A stretch of 43,612 nucleotides of DNA from the IMG/VR virus record IMGVR_UViG_3300049573_000103, positions 1 through 43,612 of that record; one strand, written 5' to 3'. Positions 3,053-39,971 of this stretch are shown in pieces. Below the pieces are notes generated by a model, which saw nothing but the letters and a program-made list of their open reading frames with translations, was not told the DNA's origin and did not search any database. Every line of letters begins with the position of its first letter. The stretch's first letter is position 1. The DNA comes from a virus. The position numbers and the translations under genes were made by a program.

Positions 3053-3393
3053 GCCAACTTGCCATGGTGGCGCTTGAGCCACTCACCGAACTCTGTGCCA
3101 GCGTCCGCGGCGAGGAAGTCTCGATAGCGCTTCGCCGACCGGGTGAGCTGCGGCGGTTTCGGGCTGTGCTGCTCCATGTATGCGACGCCTGCCGGCGTCA
3201 CCAGAAAAAGGTCGTCGCCGCCCGTCACTGCGTTGCCGGCACGGCGCGTCATCAGCCCTCGGATCACCAGATCGACGCACTGGTCGTAATCTTTCGAACC
3301 CGGCCCGGTGACAAAGTGGTTGCGGTAACGCTCGCCCTGGCCGAACTGGTCGACGCCCAAGCTGTGTTGCAGGATGTGCAGATCGTGGTTCAT
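3049..3393 (-). CDS. Hypothetical conserved phage protein
   Basis: This is the C-terminal 114 aa of ORF 3049..4500 (MNHDLHILQHSLGVDQFGQGERYRNHFVTG...). It has an ATGA overlap with the recombinase stop. Confidence 0.7.
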   Translation of the reverse strand: MNHDLHILQHSLGVDQFGQGERYRNHFVTGPGSKDYDQCVDLVIRGLMTRRAGNAVTGGDDLFLVTPAGVAYMEQHSPKPPQLTRSAKRYRDFLAADAGTEFGEWLKRHHGKLA

Positions 3394-4355
3394 CCCACCC
3401 TCCTCACCGCATCCAGATCCGCGTGTTCGCGCAGCACGTGGCGCACCACGGCGGCGGCTTGGGCGCCGTAGACGTTGGCGGTGGTGGATTTCTTGGCGTG
3501 GCGGGCCAGGTGCTGGCCGGCTTCCAGGCCGAGGGTTTCCACCACGTCGCCCACGCGGCGGTGGCGCAGCAGTTGCGGGTTGAGGTGGGCGATGCCGGCG
3601 GCGGCGCCCAGGGTGCGGATGCGGTTGTAGGCCTGCTGGCGGGTGATGCGGGTGCCGCGGTTGCTCACGAACATGGCCTGCTCGCGCTCGGCGGCCATCG
3701 AATGGCGCACGGCCAGCCAGTCGGCCAGCCACGCCACGCTGCGCGCGTTGATCGGCACCACGGCCGGCTTGCCGCCCTTGCCCACCATGCACAGCTCGCC
3801 GCGCGCCAGATCCACGCTGTTGCGCGGGCGATACACCGGGCCGGGCAGGTCCAGCGCGGTGGCGTCGCTTACGCGCAGCGCGCCATCCAGCATCAGGCGC
3901 ATCATGGCGCGGTCGCGCAGCTGCATCGGCGTGCGCGTGGGCAGGGTTTCCAGCAGCTCCATCAGCGGGGCCAGCTCCGGCGCGATCTGCGGCAGCGCCA
4001 CGAAACGCACGTCGCTGTCTTTGGTCGGGTCGTGCTGCAGCCAGCCCTCGCGGTTGGCGTGCGCCACCAGTTGGCGCAGCACCACCAGCTTGCGCGCCTG
4101 GCTGCGCGGGGAAAGCCCGCGGTGGCCCAGCCGATCCAGCCAGCGCTCCACCAGGCGTTCGCCCAGCAGGCCGATCAGCTCCACGCCCTGCAGCGCGGCA
4201 AACTCGGCGAAGTCGTGCAAGTCGCCGCCGTAGGCCACCAGCGTGTTGATCGCCGCGCCGCGCAGGCGCTTGCGCTGCAGGTAGTGTTCGATCGCCTGCG
4301 CCATCGTCACGGGCGCCACGGCGTGGCCGGCCAGGGTGATGAGGTTGGCGGTCAT
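3390..4355 (-). CDS. Tyrosine recombinase 1 (XerC/XerD-like)
   Basis: 321 aa from ATG 4355. The SAM-like N-terminal domain is present. Catalytic motifs are ALRVSD (Arg), GKGGK (Lys), QLLRH (first His replaced by Gln) and HAKKSTTANVY (His...Tyr). Confidence 0.85.
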   Translation of the reverse strand: MTANLITLAGHAVAPVTMAQAIEHYLQRKRLRGAAINTLVAYGGDLHDFAEFAALQGVELIGLLGERLVERWLDRLGHRGLSPRSQARKLVVLRQLVAHANREGWLQHDPTKDSDVRFVALPQIAPELAPLMELLETLPTRTPMQLRDRAMMRLMLDGALRVSDATALDLPGPVYRPRNSVDLARGELCMVGKGGKPAVVPINARSVAWLADWLAVRHSMAAEREQAMFVSNRGTRITRQQAYNRIRTLGAAAGIAHLNPQLLRHRRVGDVVETLGLEAGQHLARHAKKSTTANVYGAQAAAVVRHVLREHADLDAVRRVG

Positions 4356-4561
4356 GGCTGGTCCTCGCCGGTGGTGTCGGCGGGCATGTCGCTGCGGTCG
4401 ATCCATTCCAGGAGCTTGGCGAGCAACCACCCGAACAGGGCGTAGAACGCGCCGAGGAAGGCCAACAACACGAGCAGGGCAAGAACCGGCGCCCAGCCAC
4501 CGCCGCAAGCCACGGCCGCGACGTAACCGATCACGACGAGTGCGATGATCTTGGTCTTCAT
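4352..4561 (-). CDS. Small membrane protein (2 predicted TM segments)
   Basis: MKTKIIALVVIGYVAAVACGGGWAPVLALLVLLAFLGAFYALFGWLLAKLL... The ATG is at 4561, with ATGA overlaps at both ends. Confidence 0.6.
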   Translation of the reverse strand: MKTKIIALVVIGYVAAVACGGGWAPVLALLVLLAFLGAFYALFGWLLAKLLEWIDRSDMPADTTGEDQP

Positions 4562-4800
4562 GCGACACCGCCCGTTTTGCGCAAGCCAAGGCCGGATATT
4601 TGCCACATGAACCGTGGCCCGCGCCGCCCACCGTTGCGGACGTAATCGCTGCGCCAGACGTACCGGCTGCGACGCATGTTGCTCAACGTCGCGCACACGA
4701 AATGGCGTGCGATGCCGGTCGCTGCTGCCAGCTCAGTGGATGTTGCCGGGCCGGCGCGGAGTTGCCGAAGAATGGTCCGCGCCTTGGTCGTGCGCGTCAT
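4558..4800 (-). CDS. Winged-helix DNA-binding protein
   Basis: 80-aa ORF. TILRQLRAGPATSTELAAATGIARHFVCATLSNM looks like a wHTH. There is an ATGA overlap. Confidence 0.7.
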   Translation of the reverse strand: MTRTTKARTILRQLRAGPATSTELAAATGIARHFVCATLSNMRRSRYVWRSDYVRNGGRRGPRFMWQISGLGLRKTGGVA

Positions 4801-4934
4801 TTCGCACCGCCCAGGCTGACCACGATCAGCGCGTCGATCAGCAGCAGGACCAGCACCACGGCAAAACCGATGCCCAGCGGCAGCACGGGGCTGGCCGGTG
4901 GCGCGCCGTGGCGGCGTTCCACGCGGGCGCTCAC
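4797..4934 (-). CDS. Possible small membrane protein (GTG start)
   Basis: GTGA overlap with the upstream stop at 4931-4934. The C-terminus is hydrophobic (LPLGIGFAVVLVLLLIDALIVV). The ORF is short and the start is uncertain. Confidence 0.35.
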   Translation of the reverse strand: MSARVERRHGAPPASPVLPLGIGFAVVLVLLLIDALIVVSLGGAK

Positions 4935-5122
4935 GACGCCACCGCTTGGAGCTGTTGCTGCAGCGAGTGCCATAGGCGCCGCGCGGCCTGCTCGGCCAGC
5001 GCTTGCTCGGTGAACAGGTTGCTGGTGCGGGCCTTGAGCGCGCCGCTGGGGCCGATTACCTGGCCGCGCCACAGGTTGCCTTCGCGCTCGCCGTGGAAAT
5101 AGACGTCCATGGGCTTTTTCAT
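4931..5122 (-). CDS. Hypothetical small protein
   Basis: MKKPMDVYFHGEREGNLWRGQVIGPSG... The ATG at 5122 is preceded by GGGAG. Confidence 0.6.
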   Translation of the reverse strand: MKKPMDVYFHGEREGNLWRGQVIGPSGALKARTSNLFTEQALAEQAARRLWHSLQQQLQAVAS

Positions 5123-5406
5123 GCGCGCGCTCCCGGCGTGTACCAGGCCGGCCGGAACCGTTCGCCGGCCAGGTCGCCCGCCATCAGCCACAGCGACGGC
5201 ACGGCCATCGCCTTGGCCATGGTTTCGATCTGGCGTGCGTCCGGCGGCGTGCTGCCGCCCATTTCCAGCGAGGCCAGCCGCTTGGGGGTAATGCCGGCGG
5301 CGGTGGCCAGATCCTCCGGCGCCAGCCGGGCGTGCTCGCGCGAGGCGCGCAGGCGCTGGGCGAAGCTGTCCGCGTGGGCGTTGTGCTGGCGGGTCTCGGC
5401 GCGCAT
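5119..5406 (-). CDS. XRE-family HTH protein
   Basis: This is the C-terminal 95 aa of ORF 5119..5973. FAQRLRASREHARLAPEDLATAAGITPKRLASLEMG is typical of an XRE HTH. Confidence 0.75.
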   Translation of the reverse strand: MRAETRQHNAHADSFAQRLRASREHARLAPEDLATAAGITPKRLASLEMGGSTPPDARQIETMAKAMAVPSLWLMAGDLAGERFRPAWYTPGARA

Positions 5407-5786
5407 CAGGCGAGCCTCCCGCGCGTGCTGGCTTCGCCCGCGATCATCAGCAGGTCGAACACCACGCCGCCCACGCTCAGCTTCCAGCCGGGCAGTTCCA
5501 GGTTCTTCAACGTGCCGGGAAACTCCCGGAACGCGGCCACCGCAGCGGCCTGCGCGCCCTTGGGCGTGATCACCGTGCACACCGGCATTTCGCGCGAGCC
5601 CTCGCGCCGCAGCGTCACCGCGTAGCTGCGCATCGTGCCGTGCGCCTGCACCATCTTGTGCAGCATGCCGCGCGTGCAGCCCAGGTCCGCCGCCACCGAT
5701 TTCAGGGTGGCCTTTGCCCGCTTCGCCGCTGCTACCGCTTCGGCGGCTGCCGCACAGCGTTCCGGCGTGGCCGGACCCACGTACAA
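5406..5786 (-). CDS. HTH-containing early protein. As sequenced it is separated from a likely upstream ATG (5853) by a +1 frame break at a C10 tract.
   Basis: ORF 5406..5786 starts at TTG directly after the C10 run. A different frame carries ATG 5851-5853, which overlaps the upstream stop as TGATG, and reads MEAPTTHPASDVATTTRRQPPP into the run. With C9 or C12 the two frames would fuse. Confidence 0.6.
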   Translation of the reverse strand: MYVGPATPERCAAAAEAVAAAKRAKATLKSVAADLGCTRGMLHKMVQAHGTMRSYAVTLRREGSREMPVCTVITPKGAQAAAVAAFREFPGTLKNLELPGWKLSVGGVVFDLLMIAGEASTRGRLA

Positions 5787-5796
5787 GGGGGGGGGG
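5787..5796. repeat. G10 homopolymer on the plus strand (C10 on the coding strand)
   Basis: Read directly as gtacaa-gggggggggg-ctgg. It is the longest homopolymer I saw in the window. Confidence 0.95.
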
Positions 5797-5852
5797 CTGG
5801 CGGCGCGTGGTGGTGGCCACGTCGCTGGCCGGGTGGGTGGTGGGCGCTTCCA

Positions 5853-6023
5853 TCAGCGCGCCCTCCCCTGCTTGGCCAGGCCGCCGAGGATCAGCGGGTA
5901 GCCGGGGCGGTGCAGGCGCAGCGCGTCGATCAGGCGCAGCGGCATGCAGGGGTACCAGCGCAGCAGCGCGCATTGCGCGGCGGCCAGTTGGCGGCGGCGC
6001 GAGGGTTGGGTTACAGTGGTCAT
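5853..6023 (-). CDS. Small hypothetical protein. An alternative long form starts at 6200.
   Basis: ATG 6023 is preceded by TTAGGAG. MTTVTQPSRRRQLAAAQCALLRWYPCMPLRLIDALRL... The longer form from 6200 has an ATGA overlap with the upstream gene but a low-complexity N-terminus. Confidence 0.6.
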   Translation of the reverse strand: MTTVTQPSRRRQLAAAQCALLRWYPCMPLRLIDALRLHRPGYPLILGGLAKQGRAR

Positions 6024-6057
6024 GTCTTCCGTACTCCTAAGCGCGGTGGGCACTTCC

Positions 6058-6094
6058 GAACGCCCGGGGTTGCCGCCCCGGGCGTTCTTCGTTT
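6058..6094 (+). terminator. Intrinsic-terminator-like hairpin oriented for plus-strand transcription
   Basis: gaaCGCCCGGGG-ttgccg-CCCCGGGCGttc forms a 12-bp stem and is followed by ttcgttt on the plus strand. On the minus strand no U-tract follows the stem (ggaagtg). Confidence 0.4.
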
Positions 6095-6196
6095 GGGCAG
6101 CAGACGCTGCGCTGATGGCCCGGCGGTGGGCGGTGGGGACCGTGGGGAGCGGGAAACCGCGATCCACCACCAGGCCATCAGCGAAACGTCCGGCGG

Positions 6197-6433
6197 TCAT
6201 TGCATGTAGTCCTCGACGCGGATGGCGGCGATCGCGTCATTGAGCGAACCGCGCGGCAGGCCGTAGGTTTCGCGCGCCGCCGCCATGGCCACCAGCGCCC
6301 GCCGCGCGGCGCGCCAGCGGTACACCGCCGCCAGTCTCGGGCGCCCTTCGCGCTGGGCGGTATCGGCCAGCACCTGCTGTTCCTGACAGGCATCCGCTGC
6401 TGCCGCCATGCCCTTGAAGCTGCGCCCGCGCAT
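6197..6433 (-). CDS. Hypothetical small protein
   Basis: ORF 6197..6436. ATG 6431-6433 overlaps the upstream TGA as TGATG. Composition is protein-like. Confidence 0.65.
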   Translation of the reverse strand: MRGRSFKGMAAAADACQEQQVLADTAQREGRPRLAAVYRWRAARRALVAMAAARETYGLPRGSLNDAIAAIRVEDYMQ

Positions 6434-7008
6434 CACTTCACGCTCCGCAGCGGCTGGCCGTCGACCACGCCCAGCACGTGCTGGTGGATGCTGCTTTTGA
6501 GCGTCACGGCGTAGGCCTGCAGCGCGTCCAGTTCGGCCAGCGCGGCGCTGGCGTGCGCGGCATCGCCGGCATCCATGCGGCCGTCGTCCAGCATCGGCGC
6601 CAGGCGGTTCACGGTGTCGCCCAGGTGGCGCAGCAGTTCGCCCAGCTGCTGTTGCTGGCCGGCGGGCGTGGGTTGCGGCTGCGGCGCGGCCAGTAGGCCC
6701 AGGCGGTGGCTCAGGTCCGCCAGCAGGTGGCTGCGGTACGGCTGCGGCAGCGCGAGGATCAGCGCCTCCTCGATGTCCACCGCCATGCGCACGCGGCCGT
6801 CCAGCATGCGCTTCACCGTCTGCCGGTTGGCCTCGCTGTCGGCGTACGGGTCGGCGCTGCTGGCAAAGGTCACGCTGCGCGCGTGCAGCGCGGTGCGCTC
6901 GTGGTACAGGTCCGCCACCGTCTGCGCGTAGGTGCGCTCGGTGAGCGCGCTGCGGCTGATGGCCAGCAGCACGTGCTCGGCAATGAGCTGGCTGCGCGAC
7001 TCACGCAT
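6433..7008 (-). CDS. Hypothetical early protein (possibly a CII-type regulator; weak)
   Basis: This is the real part of ORF 6433..7074, from ATG 7008 (MRESRSQLIAEHVLLAISRSALTERTYAQ...). Position downstream of the switch genes is the only functional hint. Confidence 0.65.
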   Translation of the reverse strand: MRESRSQLIAEHVLLAISRSALTERTYAQTVADLYHERTALHARSVTFASSADPYADSEANRQTVKRMLDGRVRMAVDIEEALILALPQPYRSHLLADLSHRLGLLAAPQPQPTPAGQQQQLGELLRHLGDTVNRLAPMLDDGRMDAGDAAHASAALAELDALQAYAVTLKSSIHQHVLGVVDGQPLRSVK

Positions 7009-7306
7009 GGCCGTGCACCCCGTGCACCAGCGCCAGGTCCATCGCCATGTCGGCGCTGGCCGCTTCAAAGGCATCGCACACCAGGTCCGGCGCAGTGCCC
7101 AGGCGGTAGGCGCGCTGGGTGAGCATCTCGGCGATGATCGCGTGCACGCCCTCCACGGTGGTCACGCCTTCGCGGCGGATGCGGGCATTCAACGCGCGCA
7201 GGGTCATGGCCTCGTGCGCGGTGGCGTGGGTCAGGCGCGCAAAGGCGCGGCGCTGGGCCTCGTTCATCGGTGGCATGCCGTCCGCTTCCAGCTGCAGTTC
7301 AGACAT
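7001..7306 (-). CDS. Hypothetical early protein
   Basis: ATG 7306 is preceded by CGGAGG. MSELQLEADGMPPMNEAQRRAFARLTH... Confidence 0.7.
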   Translation of the reverse strand: MSELQLEADGMPPMNEAQRRAFARLTHATAHEAMTLRALNARIRREGVTTVEGVHAIIAEMLTQRAYRLGTAPDLVCDAFEAASADMAMDLALVHGVHGHA

Positions 7307-8066
7307 GGGCTGAAACCTCCGGGTCAGGCGTGGCGGGGGCGCCGGTGGCAAGCTGAGCCATCGGTAACTTGCGGAGCGTTTCGTGATGGGTGCGCAGTTC
7401 GCGCAGGGTGTTCGGGCTCCAGCGCGGCCGGCCGGTGGGGCTGGGGATGGAACGTCCGTTCAGCATGTCCGCGACGCGGCGCAGGCTGATGCCGTGCTCC
7501 AGGTCATCCACCACGTCATCGCGCACCGGCCACGTTTCCGGGTCGCGCATCAGCCGGCGCTCGTCGCCCTCGCCCACCGCCACGCAACCGAACGGCACGT
7601 GGCCGTACACCCTGCCCTGCTCGCGAAGCGCGGCGTTGCACTCGGTGGCGCGCTGCACGGCCAGGTCGCGCTCGTACTGCGCAGCGGCCAGCTGAATGGT
7701 CAGGCTGAGCTTGCCGGCCGGCGTGCTGGAGTCGATCAGCTCGCTGATGCTGTGCACGGTGGCGCCGGTGCGCTCGGCCGTGCGGAAGAACGTGAGGCCG
7801 TCCAGCGCATCGCGGAACAGGCGGTCCAGGCGGATCACCACCACGCCCTGCGCGGCGCCGGCTTTCAGCGCGTCCAGCACCTGCCGGCCCCCTGCCCGCT
7901 TGGCCAGCGGCACGCTGGCACTCACGCCTTCGTCGGCGATCGCGTCCACCAGCGTGTGGCCGTGCAGGTCGCAATAGGCGATCAGGCGCGCGGTCTGCTG
8001 GCCCAGGCTCACGCCATCCTTGGCCTGCTCCTCGGTGGAGACGCGGATGTAGCCGATCAGCTTCAT
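7299..8066 (-). CDS. Serine recombinase (resolvase-type catalytic domain plus a recombinase domain; only 255 aa)
   Basis: MKLIGYIRVSTEEQAKDG... carries the catalytic Ser motif. It also has LDRLFRD and a C-terminal region like the large-serine-recombinase 'recombinase' domain (YGHVPFG...LNGRSIPSPTGRPRWSPNTL). I saw no zinc-ribbon or coiled-coil region. Confidence 0.9.
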   Translation of the reverse strand: MKLIGYIRVSTEEQAKDGVSLGQQTARLIAYCDLHGHTLVDAIADEGVSASVPLAKRAGGRQVLDALKAGAAQGVVVIRLDRLFRDALDGLTFFRTAERTGATVHSISELIDSSTPAGKLSLTIQLAAAQYERDLAVQRATECNAALREQGRVYGHVPFGCVAVGEGDERRLMRDPETWPVRDDVVDDLEHGISLRRVADMLNGRSIPSPTGRPRWSPNTLRELRTHHETLRKLPMAQLATGAPATPDPEVSAHV

Positions 8067-8359
8067 GCGGCTGCCCATATGCGTGGAATGGAAACGCGCC
8101 GGGCAAAGGCGCCAGTGGGCAGCCGAACATCCAGCGTGCGCCGCGGTGCACGCGCCGCCGCAGGAAAAATGTCCTCGATGTCGATATTGGGGAGCAGCTT
8201 GGTGATCGCGATCGCGCGCCGCGGCGACGGATGGTTGCGGTTGCATTCCCAGTCCGAAACGGCCTGCTTGGTCACGCCCAGCAGATCGGCAAGCGCCTGT
8301 TGCGTGAGGTTGGCGGCTTCCCGCGCATCGCGCAGGGCGGCGTTGGGCAAGGATTTCAT
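8063..8359 (-). CDS. XRE-family HTH protein (second copy of a tandem pair)
   Basis: MKSLPNAALRDAREAANLTQQALADLLGVTKQAVSDWECNRNHPSPRRAIAITKLLPNIDIEDIF. There are ATGA overlaps on both sides. Confidence 0.8.
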   Translation of the reverse strand: MKSLPNAALRDAREAANLTQQALADLLGVTKQAVSDWECNRNHPSPRRAIAITKLLPNIDIEDIFPAAARAPRRTLDVRLPTGAFARRVSIPRIWAAA

Positions 8360-8580
8360 GCGGCCGCCCTGCCCGACTCGGTCGGATAGATATGCTCGAT
8401 CTTGAGTCCCGGCAGCAGGCGGATCAGCGCCAGCGCCTTGCGCGGCGCCGGTTCGTCCGTGCCTGTCTCCCACCGCGACACCGCTCCCTTGCTGACGCCA
8501 AGGGCATCGGCGACGTTCTGCTGCGTGAGGCTTTTGCGCAGGCGCGCCTCTTTGATCGGATTGGGTTTCGCTGTGCTCAT
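8356..8580 (-). CDS. Cro-like XRE-family HTH protein (first gene of the minus-strand early operon)
   Basis: MSTAKPNPIKEARLRKSLTQQNVADALGVSKGAVSRWETGTDEPAPRKALALIRLLPGLKIEHIY. It is divergent from the CI-like gene and paralogous to 8063..8359. Confidence 0.8.
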   Translation of the reverse strand: MSTAKPNPIKEARLRKSLTQQNVADALGVSKGAVSRWETGTDEPAPRKALALIRLLPGLKIEHIYPTESGRAAA

Positions 8581-9010: not shown

Positions 9011-9027
9011 AAAATCAGGAGACAGGG

Positions 9028-10751: not shown

Positions 10752-11094
10752 CGTCGTGACTCCGGTTCAAGCCGAGCTTGTTCCACACGAGCCGTTGCAA
10801 TACCTGGATGCTGGCCGAGGCGCCCAGCCAGCCGCACACGCCCACGGTCACCGCGGTCCATTGCTGGCTCAGGCCCGCGGACTGGCACAGCCACATCGCG
10901 AGCAGGCCGACAAAGCCGGCCGACGAGCCCTCCACCAGCGCCCGCCAGCCGCTCAGGCGCGCGCCGCTGTCCATGGTGCGCATGATGTAGCCCAGCACGC
11001 CGGCCACCGCGGCGAAGAACGAGTACGCCGCCGCCTGCAGCCAGCCACCGGCGGCGAGCAACCAGCCACTGAGCGGGCCGCCCGGCTCGATCAT
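10735..11094 (-). CDS. Holin candidate (3 predicted TM segments)
   Basis: 119 aa from ATG 11094, with an ATGA overlap on the endolysin stop. Three hydrophobic stretches are followed by a charged C-terminus. Confidence 0.65.
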   Translation of the reverse strand: MIEPGGPLSGWLLAAGGWLQAAAYSFFAAVAGVLGYIMRTMDSGARLSGWRALVEGSSAGFVGLLAMWLCQSAGLSQQWTAVTVGVCGWLGASASIQVLQRLVWNKLGLNRSHDDEPTQ

Positions 11095-11720
11095 GCGGCG
11101 GTGGCCAGGTAGGTCTTGGGCGTGGCGATCGGCGCGCGCGGTGCTGGCGCGATGCCGCCCAGCGCCATCACGTAGGCGCGGTCGATCACGCCGGTGTCGT
11201 CCGCCTGTGCGCCGTCCTGCTGGCCCATCACGCGCTGGGTCCAGCCCTTGCCGAACGCATCGAACGTGGGCAGGCCGCGCAGGAACTGCAGCCGCGCGTG
11301 GCACAGCGCATCGGTGAGCGCGGTGGCCTGGTATTGCGCGTCATAGCGCACCGCCGCGGCCAGCGTGACGCGCCCGGCCACGCCATCCTCCTCCACGCCC
11401 ACGATGCGCTGCAGCGTGCGTACGGCGCGGCCCACGCCACTGTTCACGGCGAAATCGAATACGGCGTAGTCCACGCCAGCCGGCAGCTCGTCGCCGCGCG
11501 TGGTGGCCCAGTAGCGGCGGCGGTAGATCGCCGCGCGCTCGGCTTCGGTGCTCAGCCGCACGCTCTGCGGGGGCAGGCGCCGCGCCTCGCGGTCCTCGTC
11601 GTACACGCGCTGGGTGATGCCGCACATGGTGGCGCCACCGGGGTCGCGCGGATGGTTGCTCCAGCCGCCCTCATAGACCAAGGTCAGGGCCAGGCACGTG
11701 GGGAAGTGGGCGGCGCTCAT
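11091..11720 (-). CDS. Endolysin, GH108-like N-terminal domain with a peptidoglycan-binding C-terminal region
   Basis: LTLVYEGGWSNHPRDPGGATMCGITQRVYD matches my recollection of the GH108 signature (EGG...D.GG.T..GIT). It is 209 aa from ATG 11720. Confidence 0.85.
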   Translation of the reverse strand: MSAAHFPTCLALTLVYEGGWSNHPRDPGGATMCGITQRVYDEDREARRLPPQSVRLSTEAERAAIYRRRYWATTRGDELPAGVDYAVFDFAVNSGVGRAVRTLQRIVGVEEDGVAGRVTLAAAVRYDAQYQATALTDALCHARLQFLRGLPTFDAFGKGWTQRVMGQQDGAQADDTGVIDRAYVMALGGIAPAPRAPIATPKTYLATAA

Positions 11721-11808
11721 GGCGGCCAGCGTGGCGGCCAGCGCGCGCCGAATCCATGCGGGGATGTGCCAGCCGGTGGCGGGCGTTATGCTCCGGTGAT
11801 GGTCAAGG

Positions 11809-11982
11809 TCAGCGGCCCTTGCTGCTGGCCGCGATCGCCGCACGCACCGCATCCTGCCAGCGCTGCGACGCATCCGTGCGCGCCTCCAGGGCCGTCACGC
11901 GCGCCTGCAGCGCGCGCACCGCGCGGCGGGCGGCCACCGCCACTACCGCCAGCACACCCAGCACCACCAGCGCGCCGATCAT
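11809..11982 (-). CDS. Small TM protein (57 aa) upstream of the endolysin; possible second holin, antiholin or lysis regulator
   Basis: This ORF is not in the track (under 60 aa). Manual translation from ATG 11982, which forms an ATGA overlap with the upstream stop, gives MIGALVVLGVLAVVAVAARRAVRALQARVTALEARTDASQRWQDAVRAAIAASSKGR. Confidence 0.45.
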   Translation of the reverse strand: MIGALVVLGVLAVVAVAARRAVRALQARVTALEARTDASQRWQDAVRAAIAASSKGR

Positions 11983-12297: not shown

Positions 12298-12810
12298 TTA
12301 CAATCCGAGGTCGGCGAGTTTTGCGGCGGTGTCGATCTGCATCTCCAGCGCGTCGGCAAAGCTCTGCGCGGCTTGCGTCAGGCATCCCTGCGCATAAATC
12401 CACGCCTTGCCTGCCGTGGTGTCGAAGTAGCCGGCGCCGTAGGCCGGCATGCCAGTGGGGTCGCCACTGCCGCTGGACCAGCCATCGGGCAAATGGCCCG
12501 CGTCGATCGTGGTGCCGGCATCGGGCACGTAACGCACCCAGGCGTCGTACAACGCATGCGTGCCGGCGAGCACGCCGGAGAGCTGCACGCTGCGCTGGCC
12601 ATCCTGCGTGGCAATGGGTGCTGCCGTGGCCGGGTCGAGCACGGGCAGGCCCTGGGCGTCGATGGCGTAGGCCCAACCGGCCACCACCAGGTTATGGCTG
12701 TCGTTGCTCACCGTGGCCAGCGGCACGCGCGCAAAGCCGTGGGCCGTGGTGAAGTCGAAAACCGGCTTGCCGGCGGGGCGGTTGGGGATGGTGTCGATGA
12801 TCGTGCTCAT
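12298..12810 (-). CDS. Hypothetical protein immediately downstream of the tail fibre (possibly a fibre accessory or assembly protein)
   Basis: This is the real part of ORF 12298..13230, from ATG 12810 (MSTIIDTIPNRPAGKPVFDFTTAHGF...). The functional hint comes from position only. Confidence 0.65.
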   Translation of the reverse strand: MSTIIDTIPNRPAGKPVFDFTTAHGFARVPLATVSNDSHNLVVAGWAYAIDAQGLPVLDPATAAPIATQDGQRSVQLSGVLAGTHALYDAWVRYVPDAGTTIDAGHLPDGWSSGSGDPTGMPAYGAGYFDTTAGKAWIYAQGCLTQAAQSFADALEMQIDTAAKLADLGL

Positions 12811-12812
12811 GG

Positions 12813-25204: not shown

Positions 25205-25205
25205 G

Positions 25206-32078: not shown

Positions 32079-32431
32079 GCAGTGATCTCCGGCAGCTCGA
32101 CGGTCTGGCCGGCGAGCGAGTGCGTGCAGTCGGGTAGGAACTGGATGTGGCCGTCGCGGACGTAGGAATGGCAGATGCCGCACGGCCAATCCCACGGATC
32201 TTCATCGGGGAATCGCTCTTGGAAATCGCAGGCGCAGTTTCCAGGCACCGGTGGGTCATTGCAGAAATGGCCGGTGCGAACCAGGACCGACGGGCTCAGG
32301 GTCGGCCTATCCATGTCGCCGTTGAAGTCCCAGTGCGGGCTTCCGGCACCGATGTTGACGATATGGCTATCGCCGCAACCAGGGCACTTGAACCGAAGGC
32401 CCGAATCACCAGCATGCTTCGCTTTGCTCAT
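32075..32431 (-). CDS. Cys/His-rich zinc-binding-type protein between the terminase and the portal
   Basis: MSKAKHAGDSGLRFKCPGCGDSHIVNIG...WDFNGDMDRPTLSPSVL...CGICHSYVRDGHIQFLPDCTH. There are ATGA overlaps. Local GC is lower. Confidence 0.7.
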   Translation of the reverse strand: MSKAKHAGDSGLRFKCPGCGDSHIVNIGAGSPHWDFNGDMDRPTLSPSVLVRTGHFCNDPPVPGNCACDFQERFPDEDPWDWPCGICHSYVRDGHIQFLPDCTHSLAGQTVELPEITA

Positions 32432-34314
32432 GCCGCCCGCGCCTCCGTCCCGCAGCTGAAAACATCCACTTCCCCGCCCGCCTCGTCGTAGAGCTTGCGC
32501 AGCATCTGCATGCGCCGCGCGTCGATGTCGTGGTCGTCCTTCTTCGCGTAGATCGGCCACTTGGTGCCCTGGCGGGCGGTGTGGTTGGTCATGTGGTTGA
32601 GCACCTCCACGTCGTAGGCCATCGCGTAGCCGTTGGCCTGCAGGCGCTGGCTGATGCACTGCGTGGCCCAGTGCTTGGCCGGTGCGCGCACGATGGTTTC
32701 GCCACCGCCGTCGTCGCGGGCGCGGTCCACCAGCGGCTCGCCGTCTTCGCCCACGCAGTCCACCGCGTTGCTGAACTGGTAGCCGGTCATGACCTCGTCG
32801 AAGTGCTGGTCGGCATAGGCCTCCATGGTCTGCAGGTCTTTCACCACCACGGTGCCGGCGCTGCCCAGGTCGACGCCCCAATGCGGCAGGCCGCCGAACA
32901 GCTCCTGCAGGCAATAGATCAGCTCGCGCTGAATGTAGTAATCCACGCCGCGGGCGTTGATGCGCAGCACGTCCTGTAGCTGCGGGCCGCGCTGTTCGCT
33001 GATGATGATTTCCGTGGGGTCGTTGGTCTCGCCCAGGTCGGCGCCGGCCCAGTACACGCCGGCGGTGGCGCCGGTGAGGTATTCGCGCAGCAGCGCGCGC
33101 ATGGCCTGGCGGCGCTCGGCGTCGTTGCGGCTGGCGAACGGCGCCAGCGCCAGCGTGCCGTCGAACAGCCAGTCGTAACTGCCGGACTTGCGACCTTGCT
33201 CCACGTGGAGCACTACACGTTTCACGGCCACGTGCAGCTCGCCGCGCTGGCGGTCGATGTTGAGGGTCAGCACGCGGTAGTCGGGCAGCTCGTGCACGTT
33301 GGGCAGCAGCAGATCCCAACTCCACACCGGGTTCTCGGCCTCGCCGTGCTCACCCAGCACGTTTCGCTTATAGCCAGGCGTGTGGCGACCGCCGTACAAC
33401 CGGATGAACTCCGCATCGCGCTCTGGCGTCCAGAACGGCGGCGGCATGATGGTTTTTGGCCAGTGGAACAGTCGCCATCCGGGCTTGGTGACCGGAAGAT
33501 CAATCACGGCGGATGTGGTCACGTTGAAATATTCGGTGCTTCGATCGCCGTCCGTCACCGAGTACACGCGTTTGCGGCACCCCGGCTCGCATGATCGCCA
33601 GAACTCACTCCATTGCACCGCGCGTTTCATTTTTGCCGCTTCGTCGACCAATGCCATGCCGTTGACGTGCACACCACGGAACGCTTCGCCATCGTGGCCC
33701 GCGGGGCGGTAGTACACGCGGCCGATGCCGGGCTTTTCCGTCTCGCCCAGCGGGATGGTGAGAAAGCGCTGCATCATGTGCGGCGTGCGCTTGGGCTGCA
33801 GCCAGAACTGGCTTAGCAGCGAGCCGCGCGCCTCGGCGCGCCCTTCCTGCGCGCCCACCTGGCCCTCGATGGCCAGAATGATCTCGTCCAGGTGCGTCTG
33901 CTGCGGCGCGCCCACCAGCATCCACGGCCGGCGCACGGTGAACCCCATCGACGTGCATTGGCCCCACAGGATCAGCACCGTGATCTCGCGCGTCTTGCCG
34001 ACCTCGGCGCCGTCCTGGTGCACCACGTCCTGCCGCCAGCTGCGCACGCTCTCGCGCTGGTAGTCGAAGAACTGCCACGGCTCGCCGGTGCGCGGCTCCA
34101 CCATGAACGTTTCCGCCCACCGCACCGGGTCGACGAACACGAACAGGAACATGGCCTGCTCCAGCGTGATGCCGTAATCGCCCCGCGACAACGCCTGCCA
34201 CGCCCAGCCCTTCTCGCACAGCCACGCGTCGAACTCGTCCGGCGCGAACACGCCGCGCGCGTCCATCTGGCGCAGCACGTCGTGATCGGCGGTGGGCAGG
34301 CGGCGCTTAGCCAT
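32428..34314 (-). CDS. terL: Terminase large subunit
   Basis: 628 aa from ATG 34314. It has a P-loop-like QDGAEVGKTRE and sits immediately upstream of the portal module. Confidence 0.8.
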   Translation of the reverse strand: MAKRRLPTADHDVLRQMDARGVFAPDEFDAWLCEKGWAWQALSRGDYGITLEQAMFLFVFVDPVRWAETFMVEPRTGEPWQFFDYQRESVRSWRQDVVHQDGAEVGKTREITVLILWGQCTSMGFTVRRPWMLVGAPQQTHLDEIILAIEGQVGAQEGRAEARGSLLSQFWLQPKRTPHMMQRFLTIPLGETEKPGIGRVYYRPAGHDGEAFRGVHVNGMALVDEAAKMKRAVQWSEFWRSCEPGCRKRVYSVTDGDRSTEYFNVTTSAVIDLPVTKPGWRLFHWPKTIMPPPFWTPERDAEFIRLYGGRHTPGYKRNVLGEHGEAENPVWSWDLLLPNVHELPDYRVLTLNIDRQRGELHVAVKRVVLHVEQGRKSGSYDWLFDGTLALAPFASRNDAERRQAMRALLREYLTGATAGVYWAGADLGETNDPTEIIISEQRGPQLQDVLRINARGVDYYIQRELIYCLQELFGGLPHWGVDLGSAGTVVVKDLQTMEAYADQHFDEVMTGYQFSNAVDCVGEDGEPLVDRARDDGGGETIVRAPAKHWATQCISQRLQANGYAMAYDVEVLNHMTNHTARQGTKWPIYAKKDDHDIDARRMQMLRKLYDEAGGEVDVFSCGTEARAA

Positions 34315-34316
34315 GG

Positions 34317-34550
34317 TTACGGCGCATCCGCCCACAGATGGCACCCGTGGCAGTCGTCTTTGTCGCCAGCACAGATGCACTTCGCTTCGGCTTCTTTCGG
34401 ATCATTGGCGCCACACTCCATGCATGGCGGTTGTTCGTAACGCGTATCGCTGGCGGCGTGCTCGGCGGCATCAGCAAATGCGTACCCAGGCGGCAACGCT
34501 CGCACCGCGCCCTCAAGAATCACAAATGGGTCAATACTCCCATGTTTCAT
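34317..34550 (-). CDS. Small Cys-rich protein
   Basis: 77-aa ORF with PPCMECG...KCICAGDKDDCHGCH. It has an ATGA overlap with the upstream gene. Confidence 0.65.
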   Translation of the reverse strand: MKHGSIDPFVILEGAVRALPPGYAFADAAEHAASDTRYEQPPCMECGANDPKEAEAKCICAGDKDDCHGCHLWADAP

Positions 34551-35380: not shown

Positions 35381-35778
35381 CCGCGCTGTTTCTCACAGGT
35401 GGCCGGTGCACTTCCATGCGCGCATGTGCCGCGGCGCCGGGCGGCGTGGCGGGCGGCGATGCGCTGCACCTGGGTGTGGCTCATGCACATGCGCCGCGCG
35501 ATTTCGCGCTGGCTCACGTCCTGGTCGAGCAGCGTGGTGATCATGTTTTCCAGCGTGGGGCCACCCAGCGCGTTGAAGAACGTGCGCCGCGATGGCACCC
35601 ACACCGCGCCGTTGCCGAATTCGTCCAGCACCACCATCAGCGCCTCCAGCCCGGCACGCTGGGCGATCAGCAGCCACAGCTCCTGCGTGGTCGATGGGTG
35701 ATGCACGGCGGCCGCGTCGAGCAACTGGCGCTCGAACGCGGTCGGGGCCTCACCCGGTCGGGAGAACACTGGATCCAT
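35377..35778 (-). CDS. DNA-binding protein with a C-terminal HTH
   Basis: 133-aa ORF. DVSQREIARRMCMSHTQVQRIAARH is HTH-like. It is the first gene of the packaging block. Confidence 0.6.
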   Translation of the reverse strand: MDPVFSRPGEAPTAFERQLLDAAAVHHPSTTQELWLLIAQRAGLEALMVVLDEFGNGAVWVPSRRTFFNALGGPTLENMITTLLDQDVSQREIARRMCMSHTQVQRIAARHAARRRGTCAHGSAPATCEKQRG

Positions 35779-36895
35779 GGCGCTTCCTCTCGAGGTCTTG
35801 GGCCCACAGGGGCAGGTCGTCGGGCACCGTGCCCAGCGCGGCGTGCTGGCGGTGCGCTTTCAGCGTGTAGCGGTTCATGCGGTTGCTCACCGCGAGGTAA
35901 CGGCGCGTGGTTTCGATGGACTCGTGGCCCATCAGCACGCGGATGCGCTCGATGTCGGTGCCGTCGTCGTAGAGCATCGTGGCGAAGGTGACGCGGAAGC
36001 GGTGCACGCCCCAGCTGCCCAGCCCGGCGCGGCGCGCGGTGCGCTTCACCGTGTCCTCGATGGACTTCACTGCCAGCGCGCTGCCCGGCACGCTCAGCCG
36101 GCCGCCACGCGACAGGTTCACGAAGACCGCATCCGTGCACAGCGACGGCAGCTTGCTGCGCACATCCAGCCATGCCAGCAGCTCTCGCACCACCGGCCCC
36201 TCGATCGGCACCGTGCGCTCCTTGCTGCCCTTGCCAAACACGTGCACCTGGCCCTTGCGATCGCTCGCCAGGTCCAGCTGGTGGACGCGAAGCTCGGTGA
36301 TCTCCTCGCGACGCAGACCGGCCGCGAGCAGCAGTAGCAGCATGGCCCGGTCGCGCTGCACGATCAGCTCGGATGTGCCCTGCTTCACTGCCGCGAACAG
36401 CGCGCGGAGCTGCGCCACGCTGTACTTTTTCGCCTGGGTGATCACCCGCTTCGGCGCCTTGTAGCCGCGCGTCACGTCCACGCCATCGCCGCGGGTGGCC
36501 AGGTAGCTGTACAGGCTCCGCACGGCCATCAGCGCGGACCGCCGTGCCGAGGCAGACAGCCGGCGCTTGACGTACAGCCACTTCTGCCAGTCATCCAGCT
36601 CACGCACCGTGATCTCGCGGAAATCGTGGCCCGCTTCCTCGGCCCAGCCCATGAACCGCGCCACGGCTTCGACGTAATCCGCCACCGTGGTCGCTCCACG
36701 GAACCCGCGCACCACGATCAGGCACTGCACCCACAGCCAGCACGTCGCCAGCCAGCGCGAATCGCGCCACGGTCGCGCCTCCACCGCCCGCATCGCCGAC
36801 GCCAGCGGCCCACCCTGGCCCAGCAACGTCGCACGCAGCTGCACCTCCTGCGGCGGCAGCACCAACCCAGCCGGAATCGGCGGTACTTCAACCAC
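35750..36895 (-). CDS. Tyrosine recombinase 2 (XerC/XerD / phage integrase family)
   Basis: 381 aa with a GTG start. The motifs are GLRREEITEL (Arg), GKGSKERT (Lys), HRFRVTFAT (H-x-x-R) and LMGHESIETTRRYL (His...Tyr). Confidence 0.85.
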   Translation of the reverse strand: MVEVPPIPAGLVLPPQEVQLRATLLGQGGPLASAMRAVEARPWRDSRWLATCWLWVQCLIVVRGFRGATTVADYVEAVARFMGWAEEAGHDFREITVRELDDWQKWLYVKRRLSASARRSALMAVRSLYSYLATRGDGVDVTRGYKAPKRVITQAKKYSVAQLRALFAAVKQGTSELIVQRDRAMLLLLLAAGLRREEITELRVHQLDLASDRKGQVHVFGKGSKERTVPIEGPVVRELLAWLDVRSKLPSLCTDAVFVNLSRGGRLSVPGSALAVKSIEDTVKRTARRAGLGSWGVHRFRVTFATMLYDDGTDIERIRVLMGHESIETTRRYLAVSNRMNRYTLKAHRQHAALGTVPDDLPLWAQDLERKRHGSSVLPTG

Positions 36896-37219
36896 AGCGC
36901 ACCCCCTCGCGGCCGGAAACCAAAAACGCTCCCCATTTTTCGAGGGCCAACCAGGTTTGGGCCGTGCTGCGGTGCAGCACTGCTTTCAGGGGGGGGTGGG
37001 TGCGAATCACTCGCATCTGTCCTGTACCGACCCCAGCCGACACCCCGCAGGCCGCGCCACCACTGGGTTTCAGGCATTCGGCATCCGGCTTCCTAGTGGT
37101 CTCACCGTAGCGTGAGACTGGAAACGAGCGCGAAGCGGGATGGATGGCGTCACCTCGCCATTCCTGCTGTGGATAACTCGCCCTGTAGCTGGCGGAGAGA
37201 ACAACGGTTAGGCGAATGC
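36896..37219. other. Probable non-coding region (324 bp) with lower GC, a G8 run and hairpins; function unknown
   Basis: The only ORF here (36888..37223, minus) has poor GC3 and implausible composition. Hairpins are GTGCTGC-ggt-GCAGCAC (36964-36980) and GTCTCAC-cgtagc-GTGAGAC (37099-37118). A G8 run lies at 36989-36996. Confidence 0.4.
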
Positions 37220-37828
37220 TCATAGGGAAAGCCCAAGGGAAACAGCGATCTGGCGGCGTATCTCGGCCACAGCCTCAGGCTCCTGGCCACGTGGGATCGG
37301 GCGATGGACGCGCGCTGGCAGCGCCTGCCTGATCGGCTCGTCGAGGGTTTCACCTCGCGCCAAGCGATCGAGCGCCGTGCGGTACGCCACGTCGAACGCG
37401 GTGCGCACCGCTCGCTCGTCGAGCGTGCGCAGGTTCCACGTGCCAACCGATCGCGCTGCGGCGCCGATGGCTGGATGCGTGAACTCGTGGTCGGTGTTGC
37501 GCGACCAAGCCAACGCCTCGCGCAACGCCTGCTGCAGATCCGGCGCCAATGGCCGGCACAGCGCAATGAACTCCTCGTCGCTCGGTGGCCAACCCGTGCC
37601 GACCTTCGACAACGCCGCCAGCCCCAGCTTGGTCGCATCGGCTGAAACGCCAGCCGCGCGCAGCGAGGCAAACCACACACCGCGGGCATGCGGATCTTCG
37701 AACCTGTCCCGCCAGCGCTGGCCGTACTTGCGCTGGAAGATCGCGAACACCTGCGCCACGGCCATGCGCAGCGCCTGGTCCTCAGCGAGTGCCGGCGAAT
37801 TCGCGGCTGAGCTGATCACCTCGCTCAT
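37220..37828 (-). CDS. Lambda P-like replication protein (helicase loader)
   Basis: ATG 37828 is preceded by GGAGGTG. ...DRLARGETLDEPIRQALP and WPPSDEEFIALCR resemble lambda P (RINRGEAIPEPVKQLP; LPSPGQFVAWCR) as I recall it. Confidence 0.7.
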   Translation of the reverse strand: MSEVISSAANSPALAEDQALRMAVAQVFAIFQRKYGQRWRDRFEDPHARGVWFASLRAAGVSADATKLGLAALSKVGTGWPPSDEEFIALCRPLAPDLQQALREALAWSRNTDHEFTHPAIGAAARSVGTWNLRTLDERAVRTAFDVAYRTALDRLARGETLDEPIRQALPARVHRPIPRGQEPEAVAEIRRQIAVSLGLSL

Positions 37829-38645
37829 AGCCACCTCCGGTGTTGGTGTTGGTTTCAGCCGTTGCCGGCACGCCGGCGATCACGTCGTCGACGAAGCACG
37901 CGAGGAACCCCAGGTTTACCGGGTGCTGACTGCGCTGCTGTTCGCGTTTCCGCTTGGCCCGGCGCATGGCCTCGGCCAGGTTGGCATCGGTGAGCCCGTG
38001 GGCCAGCCACTCGGTCAGCTTGCCGCGGTTCATCGTGCGGATGCCGATGTGCGCCGGGATGCCCTGATCGGCGACCCATGCCCAAAAACCACCGGCATCA
38101 ATGATCGCGCCCGCCTGCTCGCGCACGGTGCGCGTAGTAGGTGACTTTAGACTTGGGTTACAAGAATCTGCAGAAGCATCGGAGAAATCGCAGTTGCTCT
38201 GCTCTTTCTCCTCTGTGGGAGTTACGCCGTTACGTGTGACGCCAGTAACGGGAATAACGCCGTTATTATCGGGTCGAGGAGCACCCGCTTTTGCACGCTT
38301 CAGCTTCTCCCGATGCCGCCTCTGCCGGGCCGCATTGGTGGCGTCCAGCTTGACCGGCTGTTTCTCCAGCCAGTCGCTTATCTCGCCGTCGACAATCAAC
38401 CCGCGATCGCGGATGGCGTCGACAACGGCCGTGATCTGCTCCAGGCGCCAGCCGGTGAAATCGGCCAGGGCATGAGCATCGAACGCGGTCACCGTGCCCC
38501 GTGGCGAGGCCTTCGAAGCGCACTCCTTGAGGTAGCCCCACACCACGAAGACGTGACCGGGTGTAACACCGTTACCAGCTACCCTGGCCACGCCAAGCCA
38601 GCGCGGATCGCAGACCTCACCGTGGTATTGGCGGAACCAATCCAT
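37782..38645 (-). CDS. Replication initiator / replisome organiser (lambda O-like role)
   Basis: 287-aa ORF immediately upstream of the P-like gene. Its central linker coincides with a DNA iteron cluster and an AT-rich stretch. Confidence 0.65.
   Translation of the reverse strand: MDWFRQYHGEVCDPRWLGVARVAGNGVTPGHVFVVWGYLKECASKASPRGTVTAFDAHALADFTGWRLEQITAVVDAIRDRGLIVDGEISDWLEKQPVKLDATNAARQRRHREKLKRAKAGAPRPDNNGVIPVTGVTRNGVTPTEEKEQSNCDFSDASADSCNPSLKSPTTRTVREQAGAIIDAGGFWAWVADQGIPAHIGIRTMNRGKLTEWLAHGLTDANLAEAMRRAKRKREQQRSQHPVNLGFLACFVDDVIAGVPATAETNTNTGGGYERGDQLSREFAGTR
38141..38273. other. Candidate origin of replication inside the O-like gene (AT-rich stretch plus iterons)
   Basis: 38221-38273 reads gTTACGCCGTTACgtgtgacgccaGTAACGGgaaTAACGCCGTTATtatc, which contains ACGCCGTTA twice plus an inverted GTAACGG. 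38141-38220 is markedly AT-richer than the genome. Related copies lie at 38563-38575 (GTAACACCGTTAC) and 38905-38914 (ACGCCGTTAC). Confidence 0.5.
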
Positions 38646-38792
38646 CAGCGCGTACCCGACGCTGAAAGCGCTGGGTCATGCGCTGCGCATCCCGACGTGG
38701 CAGGATGGCAATGCGAGGCGGCAAGCCACGCAAGGCGTTGTGCAGAAAAGACTTCCCACATAAGGCTCGTCCTGAGCCGGTGCGCGAACTGA

Positions 38793-38820
38793 TCCTGTCA
38801 AACTGTATATTATGTAAAAT
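38793..38820 (+). other. dif-like recombination site (degenerate left arm, TGTATA centre, XerD-type right arm); candidate attP or resolution site
   Basis: 38804-38820 reads TGTATA-TTATGTAAAAT against the canonical dif TGTATA-TTATGTTAAAT (16/17). The left 11 nt, TCCTGTCAAAC, are unlike the XerC arm GGTGCGCATAA. Confidence 0.6.
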
Positions 38821-38921
38821 CACGCCAGATTCGGCGGGTTTTACATCGGAATCAGAAGCTTACCGGCTTTTGACGGGTCCACTTTTGGACCCGATGTGTG
38901 ATACCACGCCGTTACAGTCAA

Positions 38922-39971
38922 ATGCAGCTGCCTGCTGGCAAGGGCGAGCTGCTGCATGTGGATTCGCAGGATGCGCTGGCGCGGTTTGCGCGCATCCTGT
39001 CGGGTAGTCGGGCGCCCACGACGGTTCGGCTGTACGTTGGCGTGGTGCGTCGGTGGCTGGCTTACGGTGGAGCGGCAGACCGGCTCGATGCCGCCCTGCT
39101 GCAACGGTGGTTGAGCGATCGTCGCCGGCAGCACGCCGCGCCGGCGACGATCAACGTGGATATCAAGGCGCTGCGCGCGTTCTACGACACGATGGCGCTG
39201 ATCGGTGCCGCTCCGCAAGCAGAATCGAATAATTGTCCAAAAGGGCGACGCGTACCGGTGCGCCTGGTGCGCTGCTTCAGCGATGAACAGGTGCTGGCGA
39301 TGCTGGCGGCTCCCGATGTGTGCACGTTCGCCGGCTACCGCGACAGCGTGATGATGCGCACGTTGTGGGAGACCGGCCTGCGCGCCAGCGAGCTGGTCGG
39401 GCTGGGCCTGGGCGACGTGCTGCCCGATGCGGTGTACGTGGCCGCCGGCAAGGGTGGGCGCAGCCGCTGGGCGCCGATCAGCGCGGAGCTGCATGGCCTG
39501 CTGGTCGGCTACATGGCACTGCGCGCCACCACGCGCCCCGGCAAGCGCACGGCGCTGTGGGTGACGGCGGCAGGTCGCGCCCTGCGCAGCCGGCGCAGCG
39601 TATGGGCCATCGTGAGCCGCTGGGCGCGCGCCACGCTGGGCGGCGCCGTAGGGTATGACCGCGTGCGCCGCGCGGCGCGGCAGCGGCCATGGAGCGGGCA
39701 ATACCCGCACCTGCTGCGCGCCAGCATGGCCACTACCCTGCTCCGCAACGGCTGTCCCCTGCCCGCCATCATGCAGATGCTCGGCCACACCAGCCTCGAT
39801 AGCACCGCGCGCTACCTGGCCGCGGACATCAGCCATTTGCGTGCAGCGATCGACAAACATCCGCGCAACCATCGGTCAGCCCGCCCTGGCGAGTCGCCCG
39901 CGCCGGCGGGCGTGGCAGGATCCAGCGATCCACAAGGGGGAGTCGGGCAAGGCGCGGAGCCCGACCAGTAG
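38922..39971 (+). CDS. Tyrosine recombinase 3 (XerC/XerD-like). It is the only plus-strand gene outside the CI operon. An alternative GTG start lies at 38898.
   Basis: The motifs are GLRASEL (Arg), AGKGGRSR (Lys), PHLLRASMAT (H-x-x-R) and MLGHTSLDSTARYL (His...Tyr). A SAM-like N-terminal domain is present (VRLYVGVVRRWLAY...INVDIKALRAFY). Confidence 0.85.
   Translation: MQLPAGKGELLHVDSQDALARFARILSGSRAPTTVRLYVGVVRRWLAYGGAADRLDAALLQRWLSDRRRQHAAPATINVDIKALRAFYDTMALIGAAPQAESNNCPKGRRVPVRLVRCFSDEQVLAMLAAPDVCTFAGYRDSVMMRTLWETGLRASELVGLGLGDVLPDAVYVAAGKGGRSRWAPISAELHGLLVGYMALRATTRPGKRTALWVTAAGRALRSRRSVWAIVSRWARATLGGAVGYDRVRRAARQRPWSGQYPHLLRASMATTLLRNGCPLPAIMQMLGHTSLDSTARYLAADISHLRAAIDKHPRNHRSARPGESPAPAGVAGSSDPQGGVGQGAEPDQ

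Follow-up and report, generated by a model that had tools for sequence, protein, structure and literature searches.

Four site-specific recombinases and a dif-mimicking attachment site in an undescribed family of temperate siphoviruses of Rhodanobacteraceae

What does a tailed phage do with four site-specific recombinases, and at which DNA sites do they act? The question is raised by IMG/VR virus record IMGVR_UViG_3300049573_000103, which was analyzed over its full length of 43,612 nucleotides (the window). Three Xer-like tyrosine recombinases are encoded there: the divergent Int1, which lies inside the early operon (3390-4355, minus strand; PF00589, E = 2e-19, 70.5 bits), Int2 (35750-36895, minus strand; E = 2.7e-29, 102.6 bits), and Int3, which lacks an arm-binding domain (38922-39971, plus strand; E = 2.6e-21, 76.6 bits). 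They are accompanied by SR, a serine recombinase of 255 amino acids (7299-8066, minus strand; PF00239, E = 1.1e-28, 100.6 bits, with a partial match to PF07508); the Pfam cut-offs are 27.1 bits for PF00589 and 23.3 bits for PF00239. The N-termini of orthologs agree with starts at 4355 (Int1), 36895 (Int2), 38922 (Int3), and 8066 (SR) and, together with Pfam and PHROG matches, uphold the count and the positions of the recombinases given in a preliminary description of this DNA. The window is a circular genome of ~43,485 bp with a guanine-plus-cytosine (GC) content of 68%, a 127-bp overlap at the record termini, and a CheckV completeness of 100%. It is a complete temperate siphovirus of Rhodanobacteraceae (Xanthomonadales-type Gammaproteobacteria) and a member of an undescribed phage family, all members of which carry the same four recombinases.

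Integration at the chromosomal dif site

The Int3 gene lies 101 bp from a site that mimics dif, attP (38793-38820, plus strand), in which a phage-specific arm, TCCTGTCAAAC, is followed by the center TGTATA and an XerD-type arm, TTATGTAAAAT. The 17-bp core of attP (38804-38820) is identical to host dif. A dif-like site occurs once in the window, where no second copy was found, and the window holds no tRNA genes that could serve as attachment targets. Integrated relatives in Rhodanobacter, Dyella, and metagenomes reveal how attP is used. Dif-type junctions could be read at both ends of six copies (G002, G008, G009, G014, G017, and the Rhodanobacter glycinis prophage) and at one end of seven more (G006, G011, G015, G018, and three Dyella prophages), and the remaining proviruses have the same gene geometry as the copies with readable junctions, with Int2 ~2 kb from one end and Int3 at the opposite end. 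On the Int3 side, host ATTTCGCATAA is followed by TGTATA and TTATGTAAAAT and then by phage DNA, which makes a complete dif; at the other junction, phage DNA ending in CTGTCAAAC is followed by TGTATA, the XerD-type arm, and host DNA. In the G002 provirus, which is 90-95% identical to the window, the alignment breaks exactly at window positions 38804-38820. In R. glycinis and the three Dyella species a full dif is present ~120 bp upstream of the Int3 ortholog, and in each of these four host genomes it is the sole genome-wide match to the 24-nt dif core with three or fewer mismatches; the left junction in R. glycinis carries the phage arm. A dif-like site is also present in four of five more distant records, and none was found in the examined ends of the fifth (G020). 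Thus the junctions, the G002 breakpoint, and the uniqueness of the host dif establish that the phage family integrates at chromosomal dif. The 17-bp identity at the junctions is typical of tyrosine recombination at dif. The preliminary description had singled out the third tyrosine recombinase as the only one with an obvious site, and the provirus junctions at 38804-38820 identify that site as the attachment site. That it is a dif mimic used on the host dif had been missed there.

Because Int3 adjoins attP in every genome, it is the probable integrase: the gap between the two is ~100-170 bp in the genomes measured, and Int3 stands at the provirus edge when the phage is integrated. That Int3 and attP together mediate integration at dif is, in our judgment, very probable. 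The arms of attP behave differently across the family. The phage arm varies by sublineage (GTCAAAC, AAGCCAA, AAACCAA, and GGGAA), whereas the center and XerD-type arm track the host dif, a pattern that points to binding of the variable arm by a phage protein and of the canonical arm by host XerD. In the integration reaction proposed here, the phage would recombine the 17-bp core, comprising the center and the XerD-type arm, with chromosomal dif, so that a full dif would be rebuilt next to Int3, and the end at the O-like gene would be left with a hybrid site that holds the phage-specific arm. Int3 would most likely occupy the phage-specific arm, and host XerD, joined on dif by XerC, the canonical arms.

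The geometry of the integrated copies also bears on whether Int1 and Int2 might integrate the phage at other attachment sites or in other hosts, a role that had been put forward for the additional recombinases. Phages with several integrases, such as Perkons, have been discussed in these terms (PMC13245101), and non-coding DNA does adjoin Int2. Against this, all integrated copies examined end between Int3 and the O-like gene, at the dif mimic beside Int3, and none has its ends permuted to Int1 or Int2, which leaves alternative integration very improbable.

Several further features lie close to attP. The spacer between attP and Int3 (38823-38891) contains a terminator-like hairpin (38823-38836) and a palindrome, for both of which a function is only predicted. 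The T-run of the hairpin, read on the minus strand (38836-38823), is the XerD-type arm itself, and at the attachment core early transcripts running antisense through Int3 would thus encounter a signal that resembles a terminator. Read as its reverse complement, the phage arm gives TTGACA, which faces the O-like gene. A TTGACG hexamer is followed, shortly before Int3 begins, by the perfect palindrome GGTCCA-N4-TGGACC (38876-38891); this palindrome has a single copy without mismatches in the window, the count of the pattern is not above chance, and it is a candidate operator for control of Int3. In the 52-kb provirus G014, Int2 lies 8.7 kb from the phage-arm junction, compared with 1.9 kb in the window, extra DNA having been inserted between attP and Int2. 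On the host side of dif in R. glycinis, immediately opposite the prophage, lies a small island (3718-8556 of the host sequence) with a KfrA_N-like gene, a further tyrosine recombinase, and a Thoeris defense pair (ThsA Macro and ThsB TIR), which may be a second dif-targeting integrative element with its own recombinase.

Conservation of the four recombinases

A search with Int2 found ~27 full-length orthologs in IMG/VR contigs of 40-52 kb. Among the whole relative records, three PF00589 genes are present in 13 of 15, the remaining two being proviruses that are missing one edge, and one Resolvase gene is present in all 15; all of these recombinase genes are syntenic, as is SR in 20 of 20 relatives. 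Orthologs of all four recombinases, 40-99% identical and in syntenic positions, occur in each of the 13 genomes compared in full, which include MACPNOA1, and a set of the same composition is suggested for seven further records by their Pfam domain counts. An Int1 profile reached five more distant records at 32-44% identity, each of which has three or four tyrosine recombinases and one serine recombinase. Among 201 sampled genomes of the R. glycinis family, the prophage was found only in three genomes already known to carry it. In the distant relative G021 (36389-37622), a fourth tyrosine recombinase gene lies directly beside the Int3-like gene in divergent orientation.

The catalytic residues are retained as well. 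An N-terminal, SAM-like core-binding domain is present in all three tyrosine recombinases. Aligned with XerD and XerA chains and with orthologs, Int2 and Int3 keep all six catalytic positions (R, K, H-x-x-R, H, and Y), and Int1 keeps five of the six (R-K-Q-R-H-Y), with Gln in place of the His of H-x-x-R (PQLLRH), as had first been noticed from the sequence. This His is present in 10 of 14 genomes (the window and 13 relatives), and Gln occurs only in one subclade of four genomes, the window among them (G000, G001, G002, and G006); the R, K, R, H, and Y residues of Int1 and its motif RHRR.G(D/E)(V/I).E are invariant in all 14, and its alignment to XerD spans the full length. In Int2 the block WG(V/I)H(R/V)FRVTFAT.LYD.G.DIE.IR.LMGHESIETTR.Y(L/I)(A/S)VS is nearly invariant in the same 14 genomes, and in Int3 the R-K-H-R-H-Y residues are invariant in 10 aligned orthologs. 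SR keeps the nucleophile motif YIRVSTEEQ and the LDRLFR motif, and its S10, R8, and D81-R82-L83-F84-R85 are invariant in 10 orthologs. Across the 13 relatives, pairwise ratios of nonsynonymous to synonymous substitution rates (dN/dS) are 0.03-0.66 for all four genes. In a quick maximum-likelihood tree made with IQ-TREE, Int1, Int2, and Int3 are each monophyletic (SH-aLRT 97, 100, and 99, respectively) and show the same basal split, which fits joint vertical inheritance since the ancestor of the family; host sequences sit on long branches in this tree, and their placement is unreliable.

Because the orthologs are intact, the catalytic residues kept, dN/dS below 1, and the trees congruent, none of the recombinases is a remnant and, on sequence evidence, the four-recombinase set is a hallmark of the family, its multiplicity real, functional, and family-wide. 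The idea that some copies are dead was rejected on the same grounds. The phylogenetic placement and the survey of related genomes proposed in the preliminary description thus return three old groups with matching trees, and purifying selection on every copy supports the functional multiplicity it had put forward. It had also raised the prospect that such multiplicity might already be common and functionally assigned in close relatives: the same four-gene set is indeed universal among the relatives, but no functional assignment was found.

The ancestry of the tyrosine recombinases was also considered. Pairwise identity among Int1, Int2, and Int3 is ~27%, and with three deep clades they are not recent paralogs. 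Against the XerC and XerD equivalogs TIGR02224 and TIGR02225 they score 118-139 bits (cut-offs ~330-335 bits), and their scores are far under the equivalog cut-offs for XerC, XerD, XerS, and XerA; all three have two domains and align over their full length to the XerC and XerD models. By scores and domain layout they are Xer-like in architecture and are not XerC or XerD. Compared with the two top-scoring tyrosine recombinases of R. glycinis, presumably its XerC and XerD, they show ~30% identity, which lends no support to descent from the host proteins. An AlphaFold2 (AF2) model of Int2 has a Xer/Cre-type fold with two extra N-terminal helices and is closest to XerA, XerH, and Cre. The AF2 model of SR (pLDDT 80) comprises a catalytic domain, a long E-helix, and a "recombinase" DNA-binding domain, and ends after a small beta-hairpin and helical domain; neither the model nor the domain matches include a zinc ribbon or coiled coil. 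The match of SR to PHROG 95 covers only profile positions 78-306 of 651, it also matches the PHROG 125 DNA-invertase family, and its orthologs are 248-269 residues long. An identification as a large serine integrase, a class of >~400 residues, was rejected, since SR has 255 residues and lacks the zinc-ribbon/coiled-coil part. As modeled, SR more closely resembles a resolvase or invertase than an integrase.

Genomic context and possible roles of Int1, Int2, and SR

Nearly all genes of the window are on the minus strand, Int3 being among the few exceptions. Two cro-like helix-turn-helix (HTH) genes (8063-8580, minus strand; PHROG repressor or regulator matches with E = 1e-8 to 1e-10) head the early operon directly upstream of SR, and the operon comprises cro, the second HTH gene, SR, a CII-like gene, Int1, RdgC, and a methylase. 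Between attP and Int2 sit an O-like initiator (37782-38645, minus strand) and a P-like helicase loader (37220-37834, minus strand), an O and P pair matched by PHROG 3729 and PHROG 109. The packaging/head block follows Int2 directly, its first gene overlapping that of Int2. Integration therefore has consequences for transcription: O and P, which come to lie at one prophage end together with Int2 and the genes for packaging, head, and tail, are parted from the early operon led by cro. This operon remains unbroken as far as the junction beside Int3. As no other long transcript survives integration in one piece, Int1 and SR are the recombinases that an induced prophage could express before excision.

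This arrangement suggests how the labor may be divided. Int1 and SR would most likely work soon after infection or induction, either excising the prophage or processing intermediates of replication and recombination. Int2, which follows O and P and heads the packaging block, would most likely act on a single site in the adjoining non-coding region, where it might monomerize or circularize genomes, as Cre does at loxP. Taken as a whole, this explanation, a dif module accompanied by enzymes with separate roles, has in our estimate an even chance of being right. That Int1, Int2, and SR are active core genes with separate, independent roles, and not spare integrases, we hold at slightly under even, and any one specific role named for them here is at best a doubtful proposal.

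The non-coding region upstream of Int2 (36896-37219, minus strand; 324 bp) is conserved and is a candidate regulatory, packaging, or Int2 site. That it is non-coding, as the preliminary description held, is borne out by an overlapping open reading frame of 111 codons whose third-position GC is ~0.6-0.7, compared with 0.8-0.96 in accepted genes, and which has no PHROG match. An alignment of 17 relatives reveals two motifs present family-wide, CACCCCCCC and, ~45 nt before the Int2 start, CCTCGAAAAATGGG. A hairpin, GTCTCAC-N6-GTGAGAC, found in part of the family, consists of a 7-bp inverted repeat with a 6-bp spacer and is the sole loxP-like candidate beside Int2; the corresponding module has arms of 11-13 bp and a spacer of 6-8 bp, and the sequence is equally compatible with an RNA hairpin. 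The region has no Rfam match, nor has any other part of the window. Int1 has no adjacent non-coding DNA at all. Searches of the window for direct repeats and dif-like sequences gave only the single attP and internal repeats of the tail-fiber gene; the repeats are two direct-repeat pairs in this 1207-codon gene (14845-15565), spaced 429-441 bp apart and 78-82% identical. A generic palindrome scan is uninformative at 68% GC. Since no second site pair is present, any site for Int1, Int2, or SR must be single-copy, and recombination at such a site would take place between sister copies (resolution or cyclization) or with the host.

DNA inversion is another role that had been raised for the recombinases, by which one or more of them, SR especially, would flip a phage segment such as a promoter or tail-fiber tip. 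Phage invertases such as Gin and Cin are common, and SR matches the PHROG 125 DNA-invertase family. However, the window holds no inverted repeats above a noise level of ~70% complementarity, except for one 82% pair inside coding DNA; alignment of the window with five relatives shows full colinearity and no flipped block of at least 150 bp; and SR is 4.7 kb away from the tail-fiber gene. Inversion is thus disfavored, and of the readings considered here it is the one to which we give the slightest chance.

Another reading follows from gene position. The main function of Int1, Int2, or SR might lie in DNA binding, as regulators or architectural proteins, and not in recombination; late genes could, for example, be controlled at the conserved non-coding region next to Int2. 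Int2 itself occupies the position of a lambdoid late regulator. The Gln tolerated at the catalytic His of Int1 and the translational chaining of SR to the two cro-like genes would be in keeping with such a function. Yet even in orthologs of only ~40% identity, neither the nucleophilic Tyr or Ser nor the other catalytic residues vary, which would be unexpected for pure DNA binding and makes a purely regulatory role improbable.

A serious rival for the same evidence is that Int1, Int2, and Int3 act jointly at attP and dif as a heteromeric machine that mimics Xer. Of the three types of half-site involved (phage, XerC, and XerD arms), each enzyme would serve one, and the phage could integrate and excise without host XerC/XerD or FtsK activation. 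Int1, Int2, and Int3 each have the two domains of a Xer-like protein and align along their entire length with the XerC and XerD models; the unlike arms of attP require that at least two different proteins bind; the three genes co-occur strictly and have congruent trees; and no other site was found in the window, where Int1 lacks neighboring non-coding DNA. On the other hand, the genes lie in three separate transcription contexts, differ in orientation, and are presumably expressed at different times. Their ~30% identity to host XerC/XerD does not indicate shared arm specificity, and the XerD-type arm is kept identical to that of the host, for which binding by host XerD is the simplest explanation. 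Moreover, the recombinase genes of known multi-recombinase units, Tn554 and RIT elements, are adjacent. We consider joint action of the three unlikely, and more doubtful still that they form a self-contained, three-subunit Xer mimic in which each recognizes one half-site type of attP and dif.

Several observations nevertheless weigh against the explanation preferred here, a dif module with separate roles for the other enzymes. The assignment of Int3 rests on adjacency, and Int2 is just 1.9 kb from attP on the opposite side. No site was identified for Int1, Int2, or SR in the window searches, and the conserved stretch next to Int2 may simply represent a late promoter or cos/pac site. Phages that package concatemers have no obvious need of multimer resolution, and in the clade of the window Int1 carries Gln at a catalytic His position. 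Finally, the strict co-occurrence of three Xer-like enzymes and an attP with unlike arms fits a joint heteromeric machine equally well. A cos site inferred from the ends of the MACPNOA1 record was rejected, as these ends are an assembly overlap of ~80 nt and hence arbitrary.

Among the other genes of the window are those for a tape-measure protein (20152-23271), a capsid protein (26890-27963), and a GH108 lysin (11091-11873), which identify it as a tailed phage; its further genes include the cro-like and CII-like regulators, RdgC, and the methylase, a large methyltransferase. The presumed large terminase (32428-34380, 650 residues) has no sequence match in Pfam, PHROG, or PDB, and the presumed portal (29901-32195, 764 residues) has none in Pfam, the sole library searched. 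The packaging proteins of the family, encoded in the terminase/portal region (29901-34380), look highly divergent.

Relation to known systems and biological significance

The only GenBank member of the phage family is MACPNOA1 (KY697807), which shares with the window its gene order, four orthologs at 44-51% identity, and a dif-like attP. In its annotation, by contrast, the recombinase genes are labeled only XerD, integrase, and Pin, and no analysis or functional study of them was found in the literature. For a gene labeled XerD in the tail module of MACPNOA1 (12355-13344), the window has no PF00589 counterpart. Because the integrated relatives that can be named sit in Rhodanobacteraceae (Rhodanobacter and Dyella), the Microcystis host label of MACPNOA1 is doubtful, which suggests that its true host was a heterotroph from the culture.

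Integration at dif through a dif-like attP is known from the IMEX elements, including CTXphi, VGJphi, TLCphi, Xanthomonas filamentous phages, and Vibrio double-jelly-roll prophages, in which attP likewise has one canonical and one degenerate arm and a functional dif is rebuilt on one side (PMC4246890, PMC12715192). In the literature found, the elements described as integrating at dif are of the filamentous, double-jelly-roll, or satellite kind. IMEX are, however, defined by their borrowing of host XerCD, whereas the phage described here is a 43-kb tailed phage that integrates at dif, encodes a Xer-like recombinase of its own beside attP, and has two more tyrosine recombinases and a serine recombinase, all three Xer-like enzymes being intact.

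Other phages approach it in the number of their integrases. The Psychrobacillus phage Perkons is reported to have three tyrosine integrases and one serine integrase, a combination called extremely unusual, and Geobacillus phage E3 (four integrases) and Bacillus phage Tsamsa (at least three) were named as further cases (PMC13245101). The likeness lies in integrase counts, the proteins having been compared by description only, and in Perkons it is the serine integrase that was found to be active for integration (PMC13245101), whereas SR lacks a zinc-ribbon/coiled-coil domain. In architecture, the phage enzymes resemble those of XerS/difSL, XerH/difH, XerA/dif, and Cre/loxP of phage P1, which also have two domains and no arm-binding domain. 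XerS, XerH, and XerA have their site beside the gene, as does Int3, and the modeled fold of Int2 is nearest to members of this group; unlike these modules, Int1 and Int2 have no lox-like or dif-like site that the window searches could find. RIT elements and TnpA/TnpB of Tn554 provide a precedent for several distinct simple tyrosine recombinases that are always coinherited (PMC8138268). In RIT elements, though, the genes are adjacent in one unit, whereas those of the window are located at 3.4, 35.8, and 38.9 kb, 2 to 32 kb apart and on both strands; lacking three adjacent genes, the window is not a RIT element.

Simple, arm-less tyrosine recombinases are rare among phages; one survey found them in 27 phages, compared with 410 phages with arm-binding types (PMC8138268). 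Besides the probable integrase, the core genes of the family described here include two such Xer-like enzymes and a shortened serine recombinase, and the family brings to dif a tailed phage of 40-50 kb with its own Xer-like enzyme, where the searched literature has small elements that borrow XerCD. Because integration through attP splits the replication and late genes from the early operon, the arrangement suggests that replication depends on excision. The family thus offers a tractable case of a phage enzyme that cooperates or competes with XerCD/FtsK at dif, a test case for how direction is controlled without an arm-binding domain, and possibly new tools for site-specific recombination. If the three tyrosine recombinases were to prove a self-contained mimic of the Xer machinery, a tailed phage would be able to enter and leave dif without XerC/XerD or FtsK activation, which would represent a third route for hijacking dif, beside the XerC-only exchange of CTXphi and the activation of XerD by XafT in TLCphi.

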